Of a DNA stretch of 64,000 nt, positions 45,335 through 58,486 are shown piece after piece; the first letter of the stretch is position 1, and the number at the start of each line of letters is the position of its first letter. The translations under genes were made by a program, and so were the position numbers. The notes under the pieces were generated by a model. It was not told the origin of the DNA, made no database searches, and saw nothing but the letters and a program-made list of their open reading frames with translations. The stretch spans positions 16,845-80,844 of the forward strand of contig CAYSQB010000001.1 of the NCBI GenBank assembly GCA_964433085.1, in the 5' to 3' direction. The stretch is from an uncultured bacterium. GTDB taxonomy: Bacteria; Fidelibacterota; Marinisomatia; Marinisomatales; AB-629-J13.

Positions 45335-46531
45335 TCACTTGAAATTCTGAATATCACTTTTAAAAAATCCGATCAATCCTGTAAGTGTTCCCCCAATACC
45401 AAAAACAAAGAACACAATATGAATGGAGATAATTTCTGCCATCATTCCCACCAAAGCCGTTGAAATTGCTGTCATACCAGAAACAGCTAAATGAACCATT
45501 GCAAATAGTCTTCCATGGTACCTATTGGGGGCATATTTTTGGAGAATTGTTGTTCGGGAAATTGTAATAATTGGAATTCCCATCCCGTGAAATATGATAA
45601 TGCACAGTGCCAATGGAACTGATTGCACCCAAAAGAAAAGAGCATAGGTCAATCCATCCCAGAGCATCCCCAATAGTAGTAGAAATCCATTTTTGAAGTG
45701 TTTGGAAAAACGGTACATAAAAAATGTACCTGTTAACATTCCCAAAGCCATACCAGCTTCCACAAAAGCAAAGTCAGATGCAGAGCCATGCAAGTAATGT
45801 TTGATCATGATAGGTAGACCTACGATGGCAGGACCCATAATGAAAATATTGTTAATTATTGTCAGTATAATAAGAAGTCCAATTGAGTTGTTTGTTTTAA
45901 GGTAATTAAAACCGGACCTCAGCTCCTGTAATCGAGAACCATTAACTGATTCTTTGAATTTATCAGTATAACGGATTGTCAGCAGTACTATTGCAGCAAG
46001 CAAGAAAGAAAATGCATCCCAAACAAACAGAATTTCAATTGACATTATGTTTAACAGAATGCCTGCTATTACTGGACCTGTAAAATAGGCAAATTGCCCG
46101 CTAGTAGCTATCAGTGAATTTATTTTTACTAATTTATCTTTGGGAAAGATCTCTGGTAAAAAGGCGTTTATTGCTGGTGGGAACAAAGAACCAAAAGCAG
46201 CACGAAGAAAAGCTAGGATTCCAATGATTAGTCCTGTTTTAATATTTATGAATAGAAGCATTGGAATAATTGCAACTACAGCTGCCTGAGAGAAATTTGA
46301 AAAAAGCATTAACTTCATTCTGTTATGTTGGTCTACCAACACACCGGCGAAGACCCCAAAAATGATAGCTGGTAAATAAGCACTCATAGCGACCAGACCA
46401 GTTACAAAGGGGGATTCAGTTATATCCAGAATTATCCAAACTAGAGCTAACTGATATACAGCATCACCGGTTGCCGAAATGGTTTGAGCTGTCCAGAGTT
46501 TTAATATGTTATGTTTGATTTGGGAACGAAT
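45335..46531 (-). CDS. MFS transporter (EntS/MFS_3-like); start inferred at a non-canonical ATT/ATC
   Basis: The ORF track starts at ATG 46387, but the frame stays open to TGA at 46549-46547. The extension encodes a conserved TM1 (NILKLWTAQTISATGDAVYQLALVWIIL) with no ATG/GTG/TTG. The exact start is uncertain. Confidence 0.85.
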   Translation of the reverse strand: MRSQIKHNILKLWTAQTISATGDAVYQLALVWIILDITESPFVTGLVAMSAYLPAIIFGVFAGVLVDQHNRMKLMLFSNFSQAAVVAIIPMLLFINIKTGLIIGILAFLRAAFGSLFPPAINAFLPEIFPKDKLVKINSLIATSGQFAYFTGPVIAGILLNIMSIEILFVWDAFSFLLAAIVLLTIRYTDKFKESVNGSRLQELRSGFNYLKTNNSIGLLIILTIINNIFIMGPAIVGLPIMIKHYLHGSASDFAFVEAGMALGMLTGTFFMYRFSKHFKNGFLLLLGMLWDGLTYALFFWVQSVPLALCIIIFHGMGIPIITISRTTILQKYAPNRYHGRLFAMVHLAVSGMTAISTALVGMMAEIISIHIVFFVFGIGGTLTGLIGFFKSDIQNFK

Positions 46532-46740
46532 GATAAAAATCGAGAATCAAATATTATTTATTAAGGTACTGAACTATCTTAAAAAGAGTTATCTTTTTAT
46601 ATTTTTTGTTATTATATAGTTTTATCGATCAGAATATTGGTTTTAATACTATAATGTATAAGGAGCAAATTTATTACCTAAAATACTTTTTCCCATGTAG
46701 AAATCCTCTTTAATTTTCGAAACAATTTTGGAGAAAAAAA

Positions 46741-48236: not shown

Positions 48237-48393
48237 CTATAATGATTATTGAAATTGAATGTTTATTGAATAATGAAACTGATTTTAATATTTTGAAGGG
48301 AACAGAACTTCCTAAACTACATAGAAGAAGTAAAATGTCAACTTATATTCTCCAATTTTATATGGGATTTGTCCAATCAGTTTAAAAAAAAAC

Positions 48394-49125
48394 ATTCTAA
48401 AGCAAAAAAGCATACCTAAGCATATTGCAATTATCATGGACGGGAATGGTCGTTGGGCAAAGGAGCGTTCAATGTCTCGGCTATCAGGTCACCATGAGGG
48501 GATAAATTCAGTTAGGGAGATTACTAGGGTCTGCGGCGAAATTGAAGTAGATTATTTAACTTTGTATACATTTTCTACTGAAAACTGGAGAAGGCCAAAA
48601 AGAGAGGTGTCCGCTCTAATGAGGTTATTACTTCACACTATCCGGGATGAGATTAAAAACCTTCATGAAAACAAGGTGAAATTGACAACAATAGGAGATT
48701 TAAGTGCATTGCCAAAATCAGCACGAGAAAATATCCAGGAAGGAATAAAAATAACTAAAAATAACAATGGACTGAATCTCATATTAGCATTAAACTATGG
48801 AGCTAGACAAGAGATAACCCGATCAGTGAAGAAACTGATAGATCAAATTATGTCAGGGAAAACTGTGCCAGAAGCCATTACTGAACAAAAAATTTCTGAA
48901 AATTTATATACAAATATGATCAGGGATCCAGATTTGCTTATTAGAACTGGAGGAGAAAGACGAATTAGTAATTTTCTATTATGGCAATTGGCTTATTCAG
49001 AATTATATATGACCGATATCCATTGGCCAGCATTCAGGGAAGAACAGCTTTTAACAGCTGTTCAGGATTTTCAAAAAAGAGAGCGACGATTCGGAAAAAT
49101 AAGTAAGCAGCTAAAACCTTCATGA
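48394..49125 (+). CDS. uppS: undecaprenyl-diphosphate synthase; start inferred at ATT
   Basis: DGNGRWA, GHHEG, FSTENWRRP and RTGGERRISNFLLWQ. The conserved IPKHIAII lies upstream of the first ATG (48436), in an open frame with no canonical start. Confidence 0.9.
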   Translation: MLKQKSIPKHIAIIMDGNGRWAKERSMSRLSGHHEGINSVREITRVCGEIEVDYLTLYTFSTENWRRPKREVSALMRLLLHTIRDEIKNLHENKVKLTTIGDLSALPKSARENIQEGIKITKNNNGLNLILALNYGARQEITRSVKKLIDQIMSGKTVPEAITEQKISENLYTNMIRDPDLLIRTGGERRISNFLLWQLAYSELYMTDIHWPAFREEQLLTAVQDFQKRERRFGKISKQLKPS

Positions 49126-51521
49126 GGAATATATTTTATAATCTTTTTTTACTCTTTTGTTTTTTCTGTGTATTTACACAGGCTCAATCTAAAATAAAGA
49201 TTCTTGATGTGGGGATTGAGGGGAATGTTGTTACAACTGATAGGATGATTCGATATACAGCTTCATTAAAAATTGGGAATGAAATCAATCCAGGAGATTT
49301 CTCAAAGGCGGTGAAGCGATTATGGAGATTAGGGATGTTTTCGGATATTCAAATTCGGCTTGACGAGGAAACGGATGAGGGTATTAAAATTACTATTATT
49401 GTTGAAGAAACTCCCATTCTCGGGAAAATCTTTTTTAAAGGTAATAAGAAAATTAAAGATTCTCAATTGGAAGAAAAATTGATGCTTGTCTCTGGGCAGC
49501 GGCTTAAACTGAATACTGTTCATGAAAAAATCCAGGAATTAAAAACAATATATGCAGAAGAAGGATTTTTGTTAGTAGACATAGAAAGTGAGCTGTCTCA
49601 GGCAAAAACTGTTCGGTCAAATGACCCAAAAATCCTGAATATCACAAAAGATTTAACATTTAATATAAAAGAGAACCGTAAAGTAAGAATTGGGGCTATT
49701 AAATTTGATGGGAACAAATCTTTCTCTGATTGGCGGCTCAGGAGAGTGATAAAAAACACAAAACAACAAAGGTGGTATCTATTTTGGCGGTCTCATTTTG
49801 ATACGGAGAAATTTGAAGAAGATATTGAGTCGCTTACCGCATTTTACAAAAATAAGGGATACCGGGACTTTATGTTTCTTTCAGACTCAATAGAGTACAG
49901 TAATGATAACAAAAAAATGAACGTTTATATAAAATTTACAGAGGGAGAAAAGTATAAATTTAGAAATTTCACTTGGGAAGGTAATACTTTATATGATGGA
50001 GAAACTCTAGGCCGCGCATTGGGACTAAAAAGTGGTGATACATACAATGAAGAAGATTTTAATAAAGCCATTTATGAACGTATGCAAAGTCTTTACATGG
50101 ATAGAGGATATATTTATAGCCGAGTTGAACCTTTGGTAACCCCCGTTGGAATAGACTCTCTGGATGTTCATTTCCGAATATTGGAAAACCACAAAGTCTT
50201 TGTAAGAAATATTATGATTGGTGGTAATACCAAAACAAGGGAAAATGTGATTCGACGTGAATTAAGGATTTTCCCTGGAGATGTGTTTAGTAGGGAAAAA
50301 TTAATTCGTAGTCAACAGGCTGCCTGGATGCTAAACTATTTTTCTAATGTAGTCCCAGATATGGTACCAGTAGATGAAGACCAGGTGGATTTAGACATAG
50401 TGGTTGAAGAAAAATCTGCTGACCGGGCAAATGCTAATATCGGGTTTACCGGTGAATATGGGATGACCGGTGGTGGTGGGCTCGAGTTTAATAATTTCAG
50501 AGGTCTAGGTCAGCGATTAATGTTCAGTTTTAATACAGGGACCAATTATTCAATTTATACTACCAGTACTCCCGCAAAATACCAATCAATAAGTCTCAGT
50601 TTTACTGATCCCATGGTGTACGATACACCAAATTTAATAGGATTTTCAATCTATTATTCATTCAGAGGTGCATCAACAAATTATTATTTTCCTCTAGACT
50701 TTACTGCAAAAGGCGGATCTGTTACATGGGGAAGACGTTTTCGCTGGCCCGATGATTATTTTAGAGGAAACTGGGCCTTGCGAGGCGTTGAAAAAGAATA
50801 TAGTGGAAATCAGGCTGATCTTGATCGATATGTGAAAGGATTAAATGTTTCCAGAGGAATAAATCTGACGCAAATAATCAGCAGAGACAGCAGAAATCGG
50901 CCTGAGTTTCCCACATTGGGGTCCCTGTTTTCCTTGGAAACCACACTATCTGGTGGCCCTTTAGGAGGGAATGAAGACTTTCATAAACATGTTTTGAAGT
51001 TAGAGTGGTATACACCTACATTCTGGAAATTTGTTTTGAAAAGTTCTTTTAATTTGGGAATGATAGAATCTCTGCCTTCGGAGAAAGACGAACTTTCTAT
51101 CATTCCATTTGATGAACGATTCATTATGGGTGGGAATGGAATCCCTTATGGGAATATGCTTAGAGGATATCCAGATAACTCCATTGGACCTGTTACCTCA
51201 GGCGGTAGCCCAATTGGGGGAAATGCTATGATAAAATTCAATACAGAATTCAGGTTTCCCTTTTCAGAAAATCCAGTTGTTTATGGTTTGATTTTTGGTG
51301 AGATGGGGAATGTCTGGAATTCATATCATATGAATGAACCATTTAATATATCCCGAGGCGGTGCATTGACATTAAGAAAATCAGCAGGGGTCGGCATTCG
51401 GTTTTTTATGCCGATGATAGGCATGCTGGGATTTGATTTAGGTTATGGATTTGATGATATAACCGGATCAGGCACTCCACAAGGATGGACGACGACCATA
51501 ATATTTGGACAACCATTTTAA
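49122..51521 (+). CDS. bamA: outer membrane protein assembly factor BamA
   Basis: Signal peptide, POTRA repeats and an Omp85 barrel ending IIFGQPF. ATGA overlap with uppS. Confidence 0.93.
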   Translation: MRNIFYNLFLLFCFFCVFTQAQSKIKILDVGIEGNVVTTDRMIRYTASLKIGNEINPGDFSKAVKRLWRLGMFSDIQIRLDEETDEGIKITIIVEETPILGKIFFKGNKKIKDSQLEEKLMLVSGQRLKLNTVHEKIQELKTIYAEEGFLLVDIESELSQAKTVRSNDPKILNITKDLTFNIKENRKVRIGAIKFDGNKSFSDWRLRRVIKNTKQQRWYLFWRSHFDTEKFEEDIESLTAFYKNKGYRDFMFLSDSIEYSNDNKKMNVYIKFTEGEKYKFRNFTWEGNTLYDGETLGRALGLKSGDTYNEEDFNKAIYERMQSLYMDRGYIYSRVEPLVTPVGIDSLDVHFRILENHKVFVRNIMIGGNTKTRENVIRRELRIFPGDVFSREKLIRSQQAAWMLNYFSNVVPDMVPVDEDQVDLDIVVEEKSADRANANIGFTGEYGMTGGGGLEFNNFRGLGQRLMFSFNTGTNYSIYTTSTPAKYQSISLSFTDPMVYDTPNLIGFSIYYSFRGASTNYYFPLDFTAKGGSVTWGRRFRWPDDYFRGNWALRGVEKEYSGNQADLDRYVKGLNVSRGINLTQIISRDSRNRPEFPTLGSLFSLETTLSGGPLGGNEDFHKHVLKLEWYTPTFWKFVLKSSFNLGMIESLPSEKDELSIIPFDERFIMGGNGIPYGNMLRGYPDNSIGPVTSGGSPIGGNAMIKFNTEFRFPFSENPVVYGLIFGEMGNVWNSYHMNEPFNISRGGALTLRKSAGVGIRFFMPMIGMLGFDLGYGFDDITGSGTPQGWTTTIIFGQPF

Positions 51522-51543
51522 TTAATATATTAGGAGAAAAAAA

Positions 51544-52080
51544 GTGAATAAAAATACAAAATATATATTTACACTTATAAGCATAGTTTTATTTCCGATG
51601 ATACTTTTTGGTCAGTTAAAAGTGGGATATGTTGCTTCAGACAGAATTCGATTGGAATATGAGGAGTTCAAAGAATCAGAGTCTCAATTGCAATTGGATT
51701 TTCAAAAGATTCAATTTGAATATCAGGAGATGGTGAAAGAATTAGATAGTTTAAAACAGGCATTTGATACTCAGCGATTGATGAGTTCTCCTGAATGGCG
51801 GCGGGAAAAAGAACAGAATATTAAAGATAAAGAAACGGCAATTCAGAACTTTCAGGCAAAAAAAGTTGGGCCTGAAGGTGATTTAGTAAAAAAACAATCT
51901 CAAATGGAATATGAATTACTCTCCAAGGTAAAAAAGGCAGTTGATAATGTTGCTATAGAAAAAGGGTATGATTTTATTTTTGATGGATCTATATCTCTGC
52001 TATATGGAAAACCCACTCATGATTTAACCGATGATGTGTTGCATGAATTGAGAAAAGTCAGTAGTAATACACCTAAATAG
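51544..52080 (+). CDS. skp: OmpH/Skp family periplasmic chaperone
   Basis: Signal peptide and a coiled-coil-rich 178-aa protein in the conserved position between bamA and lpxD. GTG start. Confidence 0.8.
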   Translation: MNKNTKYIFTLISIVLFPMILFGQLKVGYVASDRIRLEYEEFKESESQLQLDFQKIQFEYQEMVKELDSLKQAFDTQRLMSSPEWRREKEQNIKDKETAIQNFQAKKVGPEGDLVKKQSQMEYELLSKVKKAVDNVAIEKGYDFIFDGSISLLYGKPTHDLTDDVLHELRKVSSNTPK

Positions 52081-52088
52081 GTATTTAT

Positions 52089-53090
52089 TTGCCAACATTG
52101 GAGCAATTGGCAGAATTAGTAGGAGGGGAACCAGTTGGTCAATCTGACTTGATTGTTTCTGGTGTATCTGAGATACAAGATGGGGAACAGGGGACAATAT
52201 CTTTTTTAGCAAATCCTATGTATAAAAAATATGTAGAGTCCACGAAAGCTTCGGCAGTAGTTGTTTCAGATTCTTCACTGTTAAATGGACAAAACGGAAT
52301 TGTAGTTCGAAACCCTCAGCTTGCATTTTCAAAAATTCTAGGTGAATTCAGCCCAAGATATACAACACAAAAAGGTATTCATCCCACTGCTGTTGTTGAT
52401 CCGTCTGTGCACTTAGGGGATGCTGTTTCTGTAGGAGCCAATGCTGTAATCCAAGAAAATGTAACTATTGGAGAAGGGACCAGGGTCGAAGCCAACTCAG
52501 TGATAGGTTGTAATACTGTAATTGGAAAAGAATGTAGAATCCATCCTCGTGTCACAATTTATCATGATTGCACCATTGGAGATCGTGTTGTTATTTTCAG
52601 CGGAACTGTGATAGGATGCGATGGTTTCGGATTTGTAACGGAACAGAATACCCACTATAAGATTCCTCAAATTGGCAAAGTGATTATTGGAAGTGATGTA
52701 GAAATAGGTGCAAATTGTGCAATTGACCGAGCTACTATAGGAGAAACAATCATAGGAAAGATGACCAAATTAGACAATCTCATTCATATTGCTCATAATG
52801 TTAAGATAGGGGTGGGATGTCTCCTTGCTGCAGGCGTAGGTATTGCAGGAAGTGTGACCATCGAAGATTATTGTATATTAGCTGGACAATCAGGTGTTGT
52901 TCCTCATGTTACTATTGGGACTAAATCTATTATTGCAGTCAAATCAGGAGTAACAAAATCTCTAAAGGGTGGAGAGATATATTCAGGGATGCCAGCTAGG
53001 AAAATTCGTGAACAGAATAAAAAAGATGCCATATTATCATCGGTTTCCCTGTTGAAAAACCGAATAGAAAAATTAGAAAAATCACTTTAA
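52089..53090 (+). CDS. lpxD: UDP-3-O-acylglucosamine N-acyltransferase
   Basis: N-terminal LpxD domain (ISFLANPMYKKY) and hexapeptide repeats. TTG start. Confidence 0.92.
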   Translation: MPTLEQLAELVGGEPVGQSDLIVSGVSEIQDGEQGTISFLANPMYKKYVESTKASAVVVSDSSLLNGQNGIVVRNPQLAFSKILGEFSPRYTTQKGIHPTAVVDPSVHLGDAVSVGANAVIQENVTIGEGTRVEANSVIGCNTVIGKECRIHPRVTIYHDCTIGDRVVIFSGTVIGCDGFGFVTEQNTHYKIPQIGKVIIGSDVEIGANCAIDRATIGETIIGKMTKLDNLIHIAHNVKIGVGCLLAAGVGIAGSVTIEDYCILAGQSGVVPHVTIGTKSIIAVKSGVTKSLKGGEIYSGMPARKIREQNKKDAILSSVSLLKNRIEKLEKSL

Positions 53091-53093
53091 AAA

Positions 53094-54029
53094 ATGACAC
53101 TTCAACATAGGTTCCAGCGCACTATTTCAAAGCCAGTTTCCTGTACAGGAGTTGGACTACATACGGGACTTGAAAGCACAATTACATTCAGGCCTGCTCC
53201 TGAAGATTTTGGCATACATTTTATACGGCAGGACATAAAAAATTGTCCCGAAATTATGGCAGACATAGATCATGTTGTGGATATTTCCAGAGGGACTACT
53301 ATCGAACAAAACGGGGTCAAAATTTTTACTGTTGAACATGCACTTGCGGCGGTTTCGGGCTTGCGAATTGACAATGTGTTAATTGAATTGAGCGCAAAAG
53401 AACCTCCAGTTATGGATGGTAGTTCAAAGGACTTTGTTGAAGTGCTGCAAAATGCAAATATTTTGGAACAGAAAAAACCTCGAAGAGTGTTGGAAATATC
53501 TGAACCGGTTTCCTATTCAGATCCAAAAAGAGGCGTAGATATTCACGTTGTCCCTTCTGACCAATTTAGAGTCACCTTTATGATTGATTATAAACTTCCA
53601 TCCCTAGGCTCTCAATATACTGCTGTTTACAATATGCAGGAGGATTTTGCACGAGAGGTTGCACCTGCAAGGACATTCTGTTTCTTAAGTGAGATTGAAG
53701 AACTCAAAGAAGCTGGCCTAATTAAAGGGGGAGGTTTAGATAACGCCGTAGTTATTGTTGATAAAGAAATTAACTATTATGAGGTGAACAAGCTCAAATC
53801 GCTTTTTGGGATAGAGGAAGAAATTATAATGGGCGCTAATGGTATTTTGAATGGAAAGAGGTTAAGGTATAAAAATGAGCCGGTTCGCCATAAAACTCTG
53901 GATCTAATTGGAGATATGGCCTTGCTTGGATACCCAATTAAAGGCCATGTTACTGCTGCAAGAAGTGGGCACGCTAGCAATGTAGAATTTGTTAAAATGA
54001 TTCGCAGTACTTATTCAGAATTTTTTTAG
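53094..54029 (+). CDS. lpxC: UDP-3-O-acyl-N-acetylglucosamine deacetylase
   Basis: GVGLHTG, TVEHALAA, EPPVMDGS and HKTLDLIGD. Confidence 0.93.
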   Translation: MTLQHRFQRTISKPVSCTGVGLHTGLESTITFRPAPEDFGIHFIRQDIKNCPEIMADIDHVVDISRGTTIEQNGVKIFTVEHALAAVSGLRIDNVLIELSAKEPPVMDGSSKDFVEVLQNANILEQKKPRRVLEISEPVSYSDPKRGVDIHVVPSDQFRVTFMIDYKLPSLGSQYTAVYNMQEDFAREVAPARTFCFLSEIEELKEAGLIKGGGLDNAVVIVDKEINYYEVNKLKSLFGIEEEIIMGANGILNGKRLRYKNEPVRHKTLDLIGDMALLGYPIKGHVTAARSGHASNVEFVKMIRSTYSEFF

Positions 54030-54038
54030 TAGTTACCC

Positions 54039-54485
54039 ATGCCAAAGCCTTCCTTTTTAATCGAGGACATATTAAAGATTGTCCCACATCGTTATCCGTT
54101 TATACTTATTGATCGTATTATAAATTATAATCCTGGGGATAAATTAACGGCAATTAAAAATGTAACCATAAACGAGAATTTTTTTCAAGGTCATTTTCCT
54201 AATCAACCCGTAATGCCAGGAGTACTGATTTTGGAAGCTATGGCACAGGCAGGAGCATTTTTGGTTCTAAATACAGTTGATAATCCATTGGAAAAGAATA
54301 TGTTTTTTACAGGTATTTCTAATTCAAAATTTAGAGCACCTGTAACTCCAGGGGATCAATTACGTTTGGAAATAAAATTAATTAAAATTAAGCTAACTGC
54401 GGTGCGGTTGCAGGGAGAAGCCTATGTGGAAGATAAACTAGTTGCCCAGGCGCTCATTATGGCCAATATTGTTAATAGAGCATAA
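54039..54485 (+). CDS. fabZ: 3-hydroxyacyl-ACP dehydratase FabZ
   Basis: HRYPFILIDRI and FFQGHFPNQPVMPGVL. Confidence 0.95.
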   Translation: MPKPSFLIEDILKIVPHRYPFILIDRIINYNPGDKLTAIKNVTINENFFQGHFPNQPVMPGVLILEAMAQAGAFLVLNTVDNPLEKNMFFTGISNSKFRAPVTPGDQLRLEIKLIKIKLTAVRLQGEAYVEDKLVAQALIMANIVNRA

Positions 54486-54490
54486 GGGAG
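54485..54490 (+). promoter_or_regulatory. Shine-Dalgarno-like AGGGAG 6 nt upstream of proposed ATT start of lpxA
   Basis: The sequence reads ...TAAGGGAGaaattaATTtctacc.... SD-like motifs are sporadic in this window, so its placement is notable. Confidence 0.55.
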
Positions 54491-54496
54491 AAATTA

Positions 54497-55270
54497 ATTT
54501 CTACCTCCATTCATCCTACAGCCATAGTACACAAAGGAGCTGATTTAGGCGAAAACGTAAGCATAGGTCCTTTTGTATATATTGCAAATGGTGTAACAAT
54601 TGGTTCAGGAACAAAAGTTGAAAATTTTGCAGTTATTAAATCCAATACATTTATCGGAGAAAATTGTAGAATATTTCAAGGATCTGTCATTGGGGAAATT
54701 CCACAAGATTTAAAGTTTGCCGGTGAAAAGACAGAAACAAGGGTTGGTGATAATACCACCATTAGGGAATTCGTGACCATAAACAGAGGGACCTCAGCTT
54801 TAGGATATACTGAAGTTGGGGAAAATGTTTTATTGATGGCCTATTGCCACATTGCCCATGATTGTATAGTAGGAGATAATGTTATCATGGCGAATATGGC
54901 AACATTGGGAGGTCATGTAGAGCTTGGAAATTGGGCATTTTTGGGGGGTGGTGTTTTGGTACATCAATTTTGTAAAGTTGGGGAACATTCTTTAATCGCT
55001 GCCGGATTCAGGGCAGTACAGGACGTTCCTCCTTTTATATGGGCCTCAGGTGAGCCGATTCAATACAGTGGTATAAATAATGTGGGTTTAAAAAGAAGAG
55101 GATTTTCGTCTGAAGAAAGGCGATTAATAAAGCAGATTTACATGTTATATTTTCGCTCAAAACTTCCCAGAGTGAAAGCACTGAATAAGATTAAAATTCA
55201 ATTTTCAAAGAATCCTTTGGGAAAAACAATTGTAGATTTTATTGAAAAAAGTAACCGGGGAATTATATAA
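54497..55270 (+). CDS. lpxA: acyl-ACP--UDP-N-acetylglucosamine O-acyltransferase; ATT start inferred
   Basis: The frame is open from 54479. It encodes (I)STSIHPTAIVHKGADLGENVSIGPF...PQDLKFAGE...TINRGT, continuous with the ORF-track fragment (54773-55270). The product is 257 aa. There is no ATG/GTG/TTG before 54773. Confidence 0.9.
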   Translation: MSTSIHPTAIVHKGADLGENVSIGPFVYIANGVTIGSGTKVENFAVIKSNTFIGENCRIFQGSVIGEIPQDLKFAGEKTETRVGDNTTIREFVTINRGTSALGYTEVGENVLLMAYCHIAHDCIVGDNVIMANMATLGGHVELGNWAFLGGGVLVHQFCKVGEHSLIAAGFRAVQDVPPFIWASGEPIQYSGINNVGLKRRGFSSEERRLIKQIYMLYFRSKLPRVKALNKIKIQFSKNPLGKTIVDFIEKSNRGII

Positions 55271-55335
55271 GCAAGTATTATTATTGTGTCCTAATTGATA
55301 ACAAAATTTTCTCAAATAAAAAATTAGGTTTATTA

Positions 55336-56145
55336 ATGCAAATTTACTTTAGAACTCCCTTTTTTCTCATGAATCACAACTCTCATTTTTTATATTCAAT
55401 ATCCAATGAATCAAACCAATTCAATCGAAAAAAACTTAGCACAACAGGTAGGTGGGGTTTATTACTTGTATTTTTCACTTTTGGTTTTTCTCAATGGGCT
55501 GAAGTTGATGTCAGAGATTCATTTACGTCTACTGACATAAAAACATTTGTTGAAAGCACAACTTTTGGATTATCACCAAATCCTTCACTAAATTCCTTTT
55601 CTAAAAAGAGAGTTTATGTTGGAGTAGGACTATCAAACAATATATTCCTTAATCCCAGTATTTATCAAAATCAACTTTCTGGCTGGGTACCAAAATTCTC
55701 CGCAGATATTTTTATAACAAACAATCTTTACTTCATGGGCCGTCTCAGTCAGTTTTATTCTGGTAAAGATATTGTCCAATCTCACAATTATGGAATTGCA
55801 TTGGTATCTGGAGGATATTCAACCTACCCATGGCAAACCTCCGTTGTGTTTTGTAGCTTAAAGGGCCCCCAAGATTTTGCATTGAGAGACATTTCTTTAT
55901 CCATGGCAACACTAGTACAAGTAGCTGACCATCAGATTCAGGTTGGAGTGGGGAAAGAAATGTATTCTGCTAGGTTTTTTTTTGAAGATGCAAACATACT
56001 CTTCCCCAATGGAATGAAAGGTGAGATAAATTATATATTGCTGGGGATGCATTTAAATAGAAACTCAATCAGGATTACTCCTCAGATTCGATTTAACCCT
56101 GGATTGATAAAGGCATCTATTAGAATGGCTTGGGGGATAGGCTGA
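55336..56145 (+). CDS. hypothetical, possibly outer-membrane beta-barrel protein
   Basis: Hydrophobic signal-like segment GRWGLLLVFFTFGFSQWA at aa 39-56, then alternating beta-strand-like pattern. The start is uncertain. Confidence 0.5.
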   Translation: MQIYFRTPFFLMNHNSHFLYSISNESNQFNRKKLSTTGRWGLLLVFFTFGFSQWAEVDVRDSFTSTDIKTFVESTTFGLSPNPSLNSFSKKRVYVGVGLSNNIFLNPSIYQNQLSGWVPKFSADIFITNNLYFMGRLSQFYSGKDIVQSHNYGIALVSGGYSTYPWQTSVVFCSLKGPQDFALRDISLSMATLVQVADHQIQVGVGKEMYSARFFFEDANILFPNGMKGEINYILLGMHLNRNSIRITPQIRFNPGLIKASIRMAWGIG

Positions 56146-56149
56146 AAAT

Positions 56150-57298
56150 ATGAAGAGACTCTCCATTTTGGGCTCAACTGGATCAATTGGTGTTAGTACG
56201 TTAAATGTAGTACGAAACCTAGAAGAGAAAATTTTAATTAAATATCTTACGGCGCATTCAAATAGTGAATTGTTAATCAAACAGGCAATAGAATTTCGTC
56301 CTGAAACTGTCGTAATAGTGAATAAAGGGAAAGTCAATATAGTAAAAGAATCTGTAGAAAAATTTGGAATAGATGTTATGGTTGGGCGAGAGGGCCTTAT
56401 AGAATGTGCTAAAGATTCAGATGTGGATATTCTTTTGAATGGGTTGGTGGGTTCGGCCGGTATGGAGCCCACATTTCAGGCCGTAAAATCTGGAGTGGAT
56501 GTTGCATTGAGTAATAAAGAGAGTTTGGTAATGGCTGGTGAATTAATTAATCATGAAAAAGGAGTTTCTGGCTCAAAAATTATTCCGGTAGACAGTGAAC
56601 ATTCTGCTATTTGGCAGTGCCTAACAGGTGAATCTATAAACGATGTAAGCCGATTAATTCTTACGGGGAGTGGCGGACCATTCCGCAATAAAAATAAAAA
56701 TTATTTTGGTAAAATTACTCCTGAGGAAGCCCTAAATCATCCCAATTGGGATATGGGGAATAAAATCACAATAGATTCAGCTACAATGATGAACAAGGGA
56801 CTGGAAATTATTGAGGCCCATTGGCTTTTTGATATGGAACCAAATGAGATTGACATCGTAGTACATCCTCAATCTATCATTCACTCAATGGTTGAATTCA
56901 AAGATCGATCAGTAAAAGCACAATTGGGAATTCCGGATATGAAAATTCCTATCCAGTATGCATTGACCTATCCGAAGCATATTGATTCAGAGTGGGAATC
57001 CCTCGATCTTGCTTCCATAGGTTCTCTTACCTTTGAATATCCGGATTTTGACAAATTCCCCTGTATTAGGCTCGCGTATGATGCTTTAAAAACTGGTGGC
57101 TCAACCCCTGCCGTGTTAAATGTGGTAAATGAATATGCTGTGTATAAATTTTTAAATAATGAGATTAAATTTACGGATATTCCCAAAATAATTGAGAAAG
57201 CTTGCGAAAGTCACAATTGGATAGAACACCTTGATTTTGAGACCTTGCTTGAGTTAGAAACTTGGTCAATCGAATTTGTAAATTCATTCCAATCATGA
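56150..57298 (+). CDS. dxr: 1-deoxy-D-xylulose-5-phosphate reductoisomerase
   Basis: ILGSTGSIGVSTL, VDSEHSAI and MNKGLEIIEAHWLF. Confidence 0.95.
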   Translation: MKRLSILGSTGSIGVSTLNVVRNLEEKILIKYLTAHSNSELLIKQAIEFRPETVVIVNKGKVNIVKESVEKFGIDVMVGREGLIECAKDSDVDILLNGLVGSAGMEPTFQAVKSGVDVALSNKESLVMAGELINHEKGVSGSKIIPVDSEHSAIWQCLTGESINDVSRLILTGSGGPFRNKNKNYFGKITPEEALNHPNWDMGNKITIDSATMMNKGLEIIEAHWLFDMEPNEIDIVVHPQSIIHSMVEFKDRSVKAQLGIPDMKIPIQYALTYPKHIDSEWESLDLASIGSLTFEYPDFDKFPCIRLAYDALKTGGSTPAVLNVVNEYAVYKFLNNEIKFTDIPKIIEKACESHNWIEHLDFETLLELETWSIEFVNSFQS

Positions 57299-57316
57299 TT
57301 ATAATTAATAAATAAT

Positions 57317-58486
57317 ATGACGTCACTTTGGGCTTTCATATTTGTAATTGGGGTGTTAGTCTTTGTTCATGAATTAGGGCATTACCTTGCAGCACGCTCT
57401 GTCGGAATTAGAGTTGAAAGGTTTTCAGTTGGATTTCCACCAAGATTATTTACGTTTACTTCGGAAGATGAAGGTTGGTTAATTCAAATGTATTTTTTTT
57501 CTCGATCATCGGTAGGGAAGTGGGAGTGGCAGTCTGTTTGGGAGAAAAAAGTATCGGTATCAGGAAAAGCAGGGACCGGTACTGAATATTGTTTAGCATT
57601 AATTCCGTTAGGTGGCTATGTAAAAATGGCTGGGATAATCGATGAAAGCATGGATACAAGCATTACCAGTGCACCTGATGAATTTATGAGTAAATCTATT
57701 TTGTCACAGATATTTGTCATGAGCGCAGGTGTGATTATGAATATTCTTTTTGCATTTTTTGTTTATACAGGTCTCTCATATCATTTTGGAAAACCGGTTG
57801 AAAATCCTCCTGCAATTGTCTCTCAACTTGTGGATGAAATGCCTGCAAAAGAGGCAGGAATGCTTCCTGGTGATAAAATAATTTCTATCAATGGGGAACC
57901 GGTTGATAATTGGAATGACATGGCGCTGAAGATACAAAGTATTCCTGTAAAAAAGATTACATTAGAGATTGACCGTGATGGGATACACCTCACAAAACAA
58001 TTCACAACTTCATTCAGATTAGACAGAGCAGGTGTGGACACAGTGGGATCAATTGGGATTTACCCAAAGATGTATTATGTTGATGTTAATCTTTTACAGG
58101 CCGGAGTATTAGGATTCAATGTAACAGTGGAAGGTTTTCGTATAATTGTTTTGTCAATTAAAATGTTGATTACCGGTGAAGCTTCTTTGAAGGAATTAGG
58201 GGGTCCTATAATGATTGCCCAATTAGCAGGAAAAACGGCAGAAGCTGGAATCCCTACACTACTGTCATTCATGGCACTTATTAGTATTAATCTAGCATTT
58301 TTGAATATTCTTCCTGTTCCCGGACTAGATGGGGGGCATATTTTTTTATCAATTATTCAGGTCATAATCCGCAGGCCGTTAAGTGTCAAAACGCGAATGA
58401 TTTTTCAGCAGATTGGGATGGCATTCCTTTTACTGCTCATGGTTATCGTTTTTTATAATGATATTGGTAGACTGTTCATAAACTGA
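57317..58486 (+). CDS. rseP: RIP metalloprotease RseP (M50 site-2 protease)
   Basis: HELGHY, a PDZ domain and NILPVPGLDGGH. Confidence 0.9.
   Translation: MTSLWAFIFVIGVLVFVHELGHYLAARSVGIRVERFSVGFPPRLFTFTSEDEGWLIQMYFFSRSSVGKWEWQSVWEKKVSVSGKAGTGTEYCLALIPLGGYVKMAGIIDESMDTSITSAPDEFMSKSILSQIFVMSAGVIMNILFAFFVYTGLSYHFGKPVENPPAIVSQLVDEMPAKEAGMLPGDKIISINGEPVDNWNDMALKIQSIPVKKITLEIDRDGIHLTKQFTTSFRLDRAGVDTVGSIGIYPKMYYVDVNLLQAGVLGFNVTVEGFRIIVLSIKMLITGEASLKELGGPIMIAQLAGKTAEAGIPTLLSFMALISINLAFLNILPVPGLDGGHIFLSIIQVIIRRPLSVKTRMIFQQIGMAFLLLLMVIVFYNDIGRLFIN

Follow-up and report, generated by a model that had tools for sequence, protein, structure and literature searches.

A conserved AUU codon behind the fabZ stop as the probable start of lpxA in Marinimicrobia

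The lpxA gene of an uncultured marinisomatalean bacterium (Marinimicrobia, also named SAR406 or Neomarinimicrobiota; GTDB lineage AB-629-J13) very probably starts at an ATT codon. The gene lies in a stretch of 64,000 nucleotides (contig CAYSQB010000001.1 of assembly GCA_964433085.1, positions 16,845 to 80,844), referred to here as the window, whose own numbering is used throughout. Started at ATT 54497-54499 on the + strand, lpxA would be an intact, functional gene encoding 257 residues, the AUU presumably being read as methionine by the initiator tRNA. Comparisons with related loci suggest that this start is old, as it seems to have been fixed before the sampled Marinimicrobia lineages split and to have been retained by the majority of these. 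The start had been proposed from the window sequence alone; it is upheld here, chiefly by conservation of the 54497 column across lineages, and in our reading it is this conservation, not the Shine-Dalgarno (SD) motif, that carries the case.

In the list of open reading frames (ORFs), lpxA is represented only by 54773-55270 (+), a 165-residue frame that begins at an internal GTG (54773-54775, Val93 of the full-length product), which is the start chosen by gene callers restricted to ATG, GTG and TTG. The gene upstream, fabZ (54039-54485, +; 148 residues), is in the same list, matches the NCBIfam model FabZ NF000582 with 182.6 bits (cut-off 113), and ends with the TAA at 54483-54485. A codon walk agrees with the original prediction that the lpxA frame stays open, reading SIREKLISTS and onwards, back to the TAG at 54476-54478, which together with TAA 54473-54475 forms a pair of in-frame stops (54473-54478, +), and that none of the 98 codons from 54479 to 54772 is ATG, GTG or TTG. 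The remaining positions agree as well. ATT 54497-54499 is found 6 nt past AGGGAG (54485-54490, +), an SD-like purine run, and 11 nt past the fabZ stop, and the corrected coding sequence (54497-55270, +) comprises 257 codons plus the stop. Initiation at this codon predicts the N-terminal peptides (M)STSIHPTAIVHK and MSTSIHPTAIVHK; the peptide encoded in the lpxA frame upstream of 54497 is LISTSIHPTAIVHK. Canonical start triplets account for 5.6% of in-frame codons in the genes of the window, which gives P = 0.0035 for a given start-free stretch of 98 codons. Such a run is unremarkable by itself, because four comparable ones occur inside other window genes, and it is notable only because the conserved N-terminal third of LpxA falls in it.

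The ATT-started product is predicted to be a full-length LpxA, capable of catalysis and trimer formation. With NF003657, the LpxA equivalog model of NCBIfam, it reaches 335.1 bits (cut-off 226) and covers profile positions 4-259 of 264; with TIGR01852 it reaches 326.1 bits (cut-off 231) and covers positions 1-253 of 254. In contrast, the 165-residue call, which according to the original prediction would not make a functional trimer, scores 199.3 bits against NF003657, under the cut-off, and covers profile positions 95-259 only. The claim that the upstream translation is the LpxA N-terminal domain is thus borne out, N-terminal coverage being complete with the ATT start and absent from the short call. 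Pfam searches with the 257-residue product revealed Hexapep in five stretches and Acetyltransf_11 at residues 176-257. Residues 3-257 align to residues 6-261 of the solved Escherichia coli LpxA (PDB 1LXA), and also to 15 other solved LpxA sequences. The gene neighbourhood, skp-lpxD-lpxC-fabZ-lpxA in the window and in relatives, is that of lipid A synthesis.

Substitution patterns show that purifying selection acts on the N-terminal third as it does on the remainder of the gene, and that this part is translated. Between members of the close clade, defined as the window lineage together with L084, L164, L165/166, L167, L168/169 and L170 (seven lineages), the ratio of nonsynonymous to synonymous substitution rates (dN/dS) ranges from 0.04 to 0.16 over codons 2-92 and from 0.07 to 0.12 over codons 93-257; synonymous differences amount to 0.5-0.8 per site, near saturation. 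No stop or frameshift interrupts the N-terminal 91 codons in 20 diverged lineages.

The ATT itself is found in independent assemblies. The fabZ-lpxA junction is base-identical, ATT included, in the NCBI metagenome-assembled genome (MAG) GCA_035092285.1, in an ENA assembly and in a TARA assembly, all three of which have the exact 165-residue call, and a 97%-identical JGI contig carries the ATT as well. Within the close clade (74-97% identity), six lineages have ATT in the column of 54497 and the seventh has ATC. In the six relatives, the first canonical start after the in-frame stop is an internal GTG at codon 33. Residues encoded 5' of the ATT are unconserved (SIREKL, GGRL, GRGP, KDKGGKL and GRKH), and conservation sets in from ISTSIHP onward. 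The open stretch ahead of the ATT or ATC is as short as four codons in three of these lineages (L084, L165 and L170), and it contains no near-cognate codon.

A wider survey was made with all fetched loci anchored on the conserved His of the IHPTA motif, the start column being position -5. Intermediate relatives were fetched protein by protein; pattern scans of genome and metagenome contigs yielded mostly Bacteroidota, which served as a control set with canonical starts. Among 35 Marinimicrobia loci, with 58-100% amino acid identity, the start column is ATT in 28, ATA in two, ATC in one and ATG in one (L173), the last falling exactly in the ATT column; the more distant loci with a near-cognate codon there have ATT or ATA. 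The other three loci carry a canonical start at -2, three codons downstream of the ATT column; in the two of these that were read (L182 and L183), the codon at -2 is ATG and that at -5 is now ACC, as would be expected if ATT had been the start and was released after a canonical start arose nearby. Of the 31 loci with ATT, ATA or ATC, 25 are devoid of canonical codons over the interval from the in-frame stop upstream to the conserved HP anchor. In about 140 loci from outside Marinimicrobia, most of them from Bacteroidota, a canonical start is invariably found 2-5 codons ahead of the anchor. When started in the ATT column, all 20 distinct Marinimicrobia products are 256-257 residues long. The non-canonical lpxA start thus appears to hold across most of the sampled loci of the phylum. 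None of the orthologs starts at the equivalent of 54773, which answers one of the objections that the original prediction had raised against itself.

Public annotations mirror the difficulty of finding this start. The exact 257-residue window product, whether begun with M or with I, is missing from a collection of 15 billion proteins, which does hold the 165-residue call, in a cluster of 29 members. A protein search showed calls of 225 or 231 residues for all of the ten closest clusters (75-96% identity) and of 165 for another; because the closest clusters are all called short, truncation is a property of the whole clade. Short public lpxA calls measure 144, 165, 225, 231 and 241 residues. The claim that standard callers truncate the gene therefore stands as far as these short calls go (144, 165, 225 and 241 residues), with the qualification that NCBI had already placed an ATT start on a homolog. 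That homolog, P0023, is a Marinimicrobia protein of 257 residues with 61% identity (GenBank MBU36712.1, MDP6275715.1 and HJL75518.1), annotated as MATLVHPTALV at its N-terminus, and in its DNA (L171/L172) the initial M sits on the homologous ATT. An ATT start at the homologous codon is consequently already known to NCBI annotation, if implicitly. The P0023 cluster also holds a truncated 144-residue call, on 166 contigs. Full-text literature searches, one of which was broad and swamped by unrelated matches, turned up no publication that describes a non-canonical start of lpxA or the use of start codons in Marinimicrobia.

Errors in the opposite direction were observed too. Public Marinimicrobia lpxA calls of 264-284 residues (P0011, P0013, P0015, P0016 and similar) appear over-extended: without an intervening in-frame stop, callers run back to an ATG or TTG in the 3' end of fabZ, as verified at the DNA level in L087 and L184. 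For instance, the public 278-residue call in L184 (1201-2037 of that locus) over-extends into fabZ. A further public protein, P0038 (234 residues), has an N-terminal half unlike the clade, a nearly identical C-terminal half and an aberrant end, and is probably a chimeric assembly.

Other explanations of the missing canonical start were weighed against initiation at ATT 54497. Initiation at another non-canonical codon is improbable, even though ATA 54482, which overlaps the fabZ stop as ATAA, and ATT 54509, the Ile of IHPTAIV, are both near-cognate and in frame, and position 1 of TIGR01852 aligns at that Ile (residue 5 of the 257-residue product). ATA 54482 is ruled out, as in-frame stops block its shared use in three close lineages (L084, L165 and L170). 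ATT 54509 is disfavoured: it lies 18 nt from the SD-like run, and several lineages have Leu (TTA) or Ala (GCA) in its column, so that only the column of 54497 is consistently near-cognate. The 54497 column is, moreover, the one in which the ATG of L173 falls and the one that NCBI annotation picked in the homolog. An assembly or consensus error hiding a true ATG would take no more than a single G-to-T difference; this reading, which the original prediction had named as its own refutation, has next to no probability left and is ruled out by the agreement of independent NCBI, ENA, TARA and JGI assemblies on ATT and by its conservation down to 58% protein identity.

We give equally little credence to the idea that lpxA is decaying, or is expressed only as a 165-residue C-terminal fragment, which has in its favour that no canonical start precedes codon 93. 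The dN/dS of about 0.1 over the N-terminal 91 codons, like that of the C-terminal part, rules out a pseudogene, and those codons stay free of stops and frameshifts in all 20 lineages; the short product falls under the LpxA family cut-off, and no second lpxA is seen in the window. Synthesis as a FabZ-LpxA fusion, through frameshifting or stop-codon readthrough, is very unlikely. The two genes abut, and the fabZ stop falls in the lpxA frame in L084, L165 and L170. However, the frame relation varies by lineage, with gaps of -1, +1, +2, +3, +11 and +12 nt, so that no single recoding event fits all of them and a fusion of this kind is ruled out; there is no conserved slippery sequence, and one lineage (L173) has a plain ATG.

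How ribosomes reach the AUU may be suggested by the layout of the junction. The gap between fabZ stop and lpxA start is -1, +1 (in most distant lineages), +2, +3, +11 (in the window) or +12 nt; in L167 and L168 the -1 gap takes the form TAATT, and in L184 the ATT is found 1 nt past the fabZ TAA. GGGAG, GGAGG or GGGGG occurs 6-8 nt upstream of the start in all seven close-clade lineages, and most Marinimicrobia lineages have an SD-like run rich in purines 5-8 nt ahead of it. Because the start always lies between -1 and +12 nt from the fabZ stop and is preceded in most lineages by such a run, ribosomes arriving from fabZ are the likely route of delivery. Ribosomes terminating on fabZ would reach the AUU either by termination-reinitiation, possibly assisted by the SD-like run, or by unfolding a local hairpin, and the outcome would be a low LpxA output tied to that of FabZ. 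Both enzymes draw on the pool of R-3-hydroxyacyl-ACP, which makes such coupled output plausible. The two genes share a strand, with stop and start overlapping or a few nt apart, which is the layout of a coupled pair; dependence of lpxA on fabZ translation is a prediction. We advance coupling, and control of stoichiometry, as the rationale for the AUU only tentatively and consider it somewhat doubtful.

The hairpin is a weak and speculative lead. A possible small structure at 54485-54506 (+), in which the SD-like run would pair with codons 2-4 and the ATT would sit at the top, was obtained in the minimum free energy fold of 54450-54540 (z = -1.32). Comparable hairpins are predicted in seven close lineages (z from -1.0 to -3.1) and none in distant ones. 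The same interval holds the near-palindrome AGGGAGAAATT/AATTTCTACCTCC, in which ACC TCC resembles the anti-SD sequence CCUCC.

Several observations weigh against the reading of a maintained, coupled AUU start. SD-like tetramers are rare ahead of the window genes: of about 52 upstream regions, some dozen contain one no further than 20 nt from the start, seldom at optimal spacing. This suggests that initiation in this genome is largely SD-independent, as in other bacteria of the Fibrobacterota-Chlorobiota-Bacteroidota (FCB) group, and the ribosome may make little use of SD pairing here. The SD part of the original prediction is therefore correct in the position and spacing of AGGGAG and weaker as an argument than it implied. 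The hairpin is statistically weak, and the benefit through the FabZ:LpxA ratio is pure inference. As regards codon-level selection for ATT over ATA or ATC, 17 of the 19 Ile-type codons in the start column are ATT, compared with 64% for invariant internal Ile columns when pooled, yet two internal Ile columns are equally skewed (e.g. 17/20), so that ATT is not clearly more conserved at the start. The support for initiation at ATT 54497 comes from sequence comparison. Lastly, a second probable ATT start in the window, that of uppS, has neither an SD motif nor an adjacent upstream stop, and because of this ATT initiation here may not need coupling.

The uppS start emerged when the window was screened for genes with long open stretches ahead of their first canonical start. 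In the uppS frame (48334-49125, +), no canonical codon precedes ATG 48436, which encodes the Met of the conserved HIAIIMDGNGRWA motif. Relatives of 252 residues start exactly at the codon equivalent to ATT 48367, which would make the gene 48367-49125 (+). At this same codon, a 95%-identical sister lineage has ATG, while the ATT is identical in four further assemblies (five in all); apparently, an ATG in this essential gene was recently replaced by ATT, which became fixed. The screen also identified a major facilitator superfamily (MFS) transporter (45335-46546, -) with no canonical start ahead of codon 54 (ATG 46387). Both homology and the first transmembrane segment set in around codon 11-16, and candidate starts are ATT 46540, ATC 46534, ATT 46531, ATC 46519 and ATA 46507. 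Some relatives of this protein, at 81-94% identity, are also called short, at 350 residues; others, at 72-84%, have full N-termini and measure 396-402 residues. Eleven other genes with at least six open codons before the first canonical start were compared with NCBIfam; eight fit a canonical start and three match no family. Most remaining genes of the window have an in-frame stop 0-5 codons ahead of their start.

Three of the approximately 52 window genes (lpxA, uppS and the MFS transporter) thus have no canonical start. This is far above the level in well-annotated genomes, where roughly 0.05% of annotated starts are non-canonical: in 79 such bacterial genomes, ATG, GTG and TTG together make up 99.95%. 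The excess points to a serious alternative to an lpxA-specific function, which concerns why lpxA has an ATT and not where its start lies: selection on start codons may be relaxed lineage-wide, with AUU, or AUH (AUA, AUC or AUU) more generally, tolerated, for example through altered initiation factor 3 (IF3), altered discrimination of the initiator tRNA or SD-independent initiation, and the ATT of lpxA would then be one of many neutral or near-neutral cases. The recent, fixed change in uppS and the truncated public calls of MFS relatives speak for it too. Against it, the sample is 64 kb only, and eight of the 11 other genes with upstream room fit canonical starts, the remaining three having matched no family. 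The lpxA ATT, in addition, is far older and more conserved than that of uppS, which suggests maintenance over drift. Relaxed selection is thus a realistic possibility, if short of the probable one. The broader claim that Marinimicrobia, or at least the window lineage, start unusually many genes on AUU or AUH (about 6% in the window, with lpxA and uppS as essential envelope genes among them) is possible, though we lean against it. If true, it would mean that start-codon proofreading is weakened and that N-termini are mis-annotated systematically across an uncultured ocean phylum of global abundance.

Initiation of lpxA at AUU 54497 has practical consequences. Most public Marinimicrobia lpxA calls would be wrong, either truncated (to 144, 165, 225 or 241 residues) or over-extended (to 264-278), and a miscalled lpxA can make an essential step of lipid A synthesis seem absent or broken in metabolic reconstructions of this phylum. 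To our knowledge, deeply conserved AUU starts have rarely been reported in bacteria besides that of infC. A long-held AUU behind the fabZ stop would offer a natural test case of how weak starts and reinitiation set enzyme ratios. The same codon bears on whether SD-poor FCB-group bacteria police their start codons less strictly; because two further ATT-type starts occur in the same 64 kb, this can be tested by a profile-anchored survey of MAGs. What is new here beyond lpxA is that uppS and the MFS transporter also have no canonical start, which hints at lineage-wide tolerance of ATT, and the wider ATT-start pattern in the lineage is the part most worth pursuing.

The two confident ATT-start genes, lpxA and uppS, both lie in a conserved supercluster of envelope biogenesis at 48334-58486, in the order uppS - bamA (799 residues) - skp/ompH - lpxD - lpxC - fabZ - lpxA - a 269-residue protein - dxr - rseP. 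The ORF of the 269-residue protein (55255-56145, +) has 27 open codons ahead of its ATG and no NCBIfam match; its position is conserved in relatives, where the product has 221-269 residues and no Pfam match. In L173, the lineage with the ATG start of lpxA, lpxC and fabZ are fused into a gene for 467 residues (94-1497 of that locus), as in Bacteroidota; they are separate in the window and in other relatives. An Rfam scan of the whole window (1-64000) found no family at gathering score, and no tRNA, rRNA or riboswitch.

Compared with the LpxA family as represented by NF003657, TIGR01852 and 1LXA, the window protein has the same left-handed beta-helix of hexapeptide repeats, the same C-terminal Acetyltransf_11 domain and the same lpxD-lpxC-fabZ-lpxA context, and the start codon is the sole difference. 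The supercluster likewise resembles the uppS..rseP-bamA-skp-lpxD-fabZ-lpxA region of E. coli.

The AUU codon of E. coli infC, the gene for IF3, is the sensor in an autoregulatory loop of that factor. Like infC and pcnB, the window lpxA would be a conserved housekeeping gene with an AUU start. In contrast to infC, nothing suggests that lpxA senses IF3, and its AUU is found directly behind the stop of the upstream gene. infC and pcnB are the only confirmed AUU genes of E. coli, in which reporters starting with AUU, AUA or AUC initiate at about 0.1-3% of the AUG level (bioRxiv 10.1101/063800).

The E. coli fabZ-lpxA junction has the same gene order, with a lpxA GTG 3 nt past the fabZ TGA and GGGAGG within the end of fabZ. 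That GUG is a canonical alternative start, whereas the AUU, AUA or AUC proposed for Marinimicrobia is one step weaker and invisible to callers restricted to ATG, GTG and TTG. Closely spaced stop/start pairs, with spacings including -4, -1 and +3 nt, are a classical substrate for translational coupling (PMC12548453). Like these termination-reinitiation pairs, fabZ and lpxA are co-oriented with a gap of -1 to +12 nt, and the TAATT of L167 and L168 mirrors the classical TAATG. The Marinimicrobia pair differs in that the lpxA start would be near-cognate and in that its coupling is proposed from the layout of the junction.

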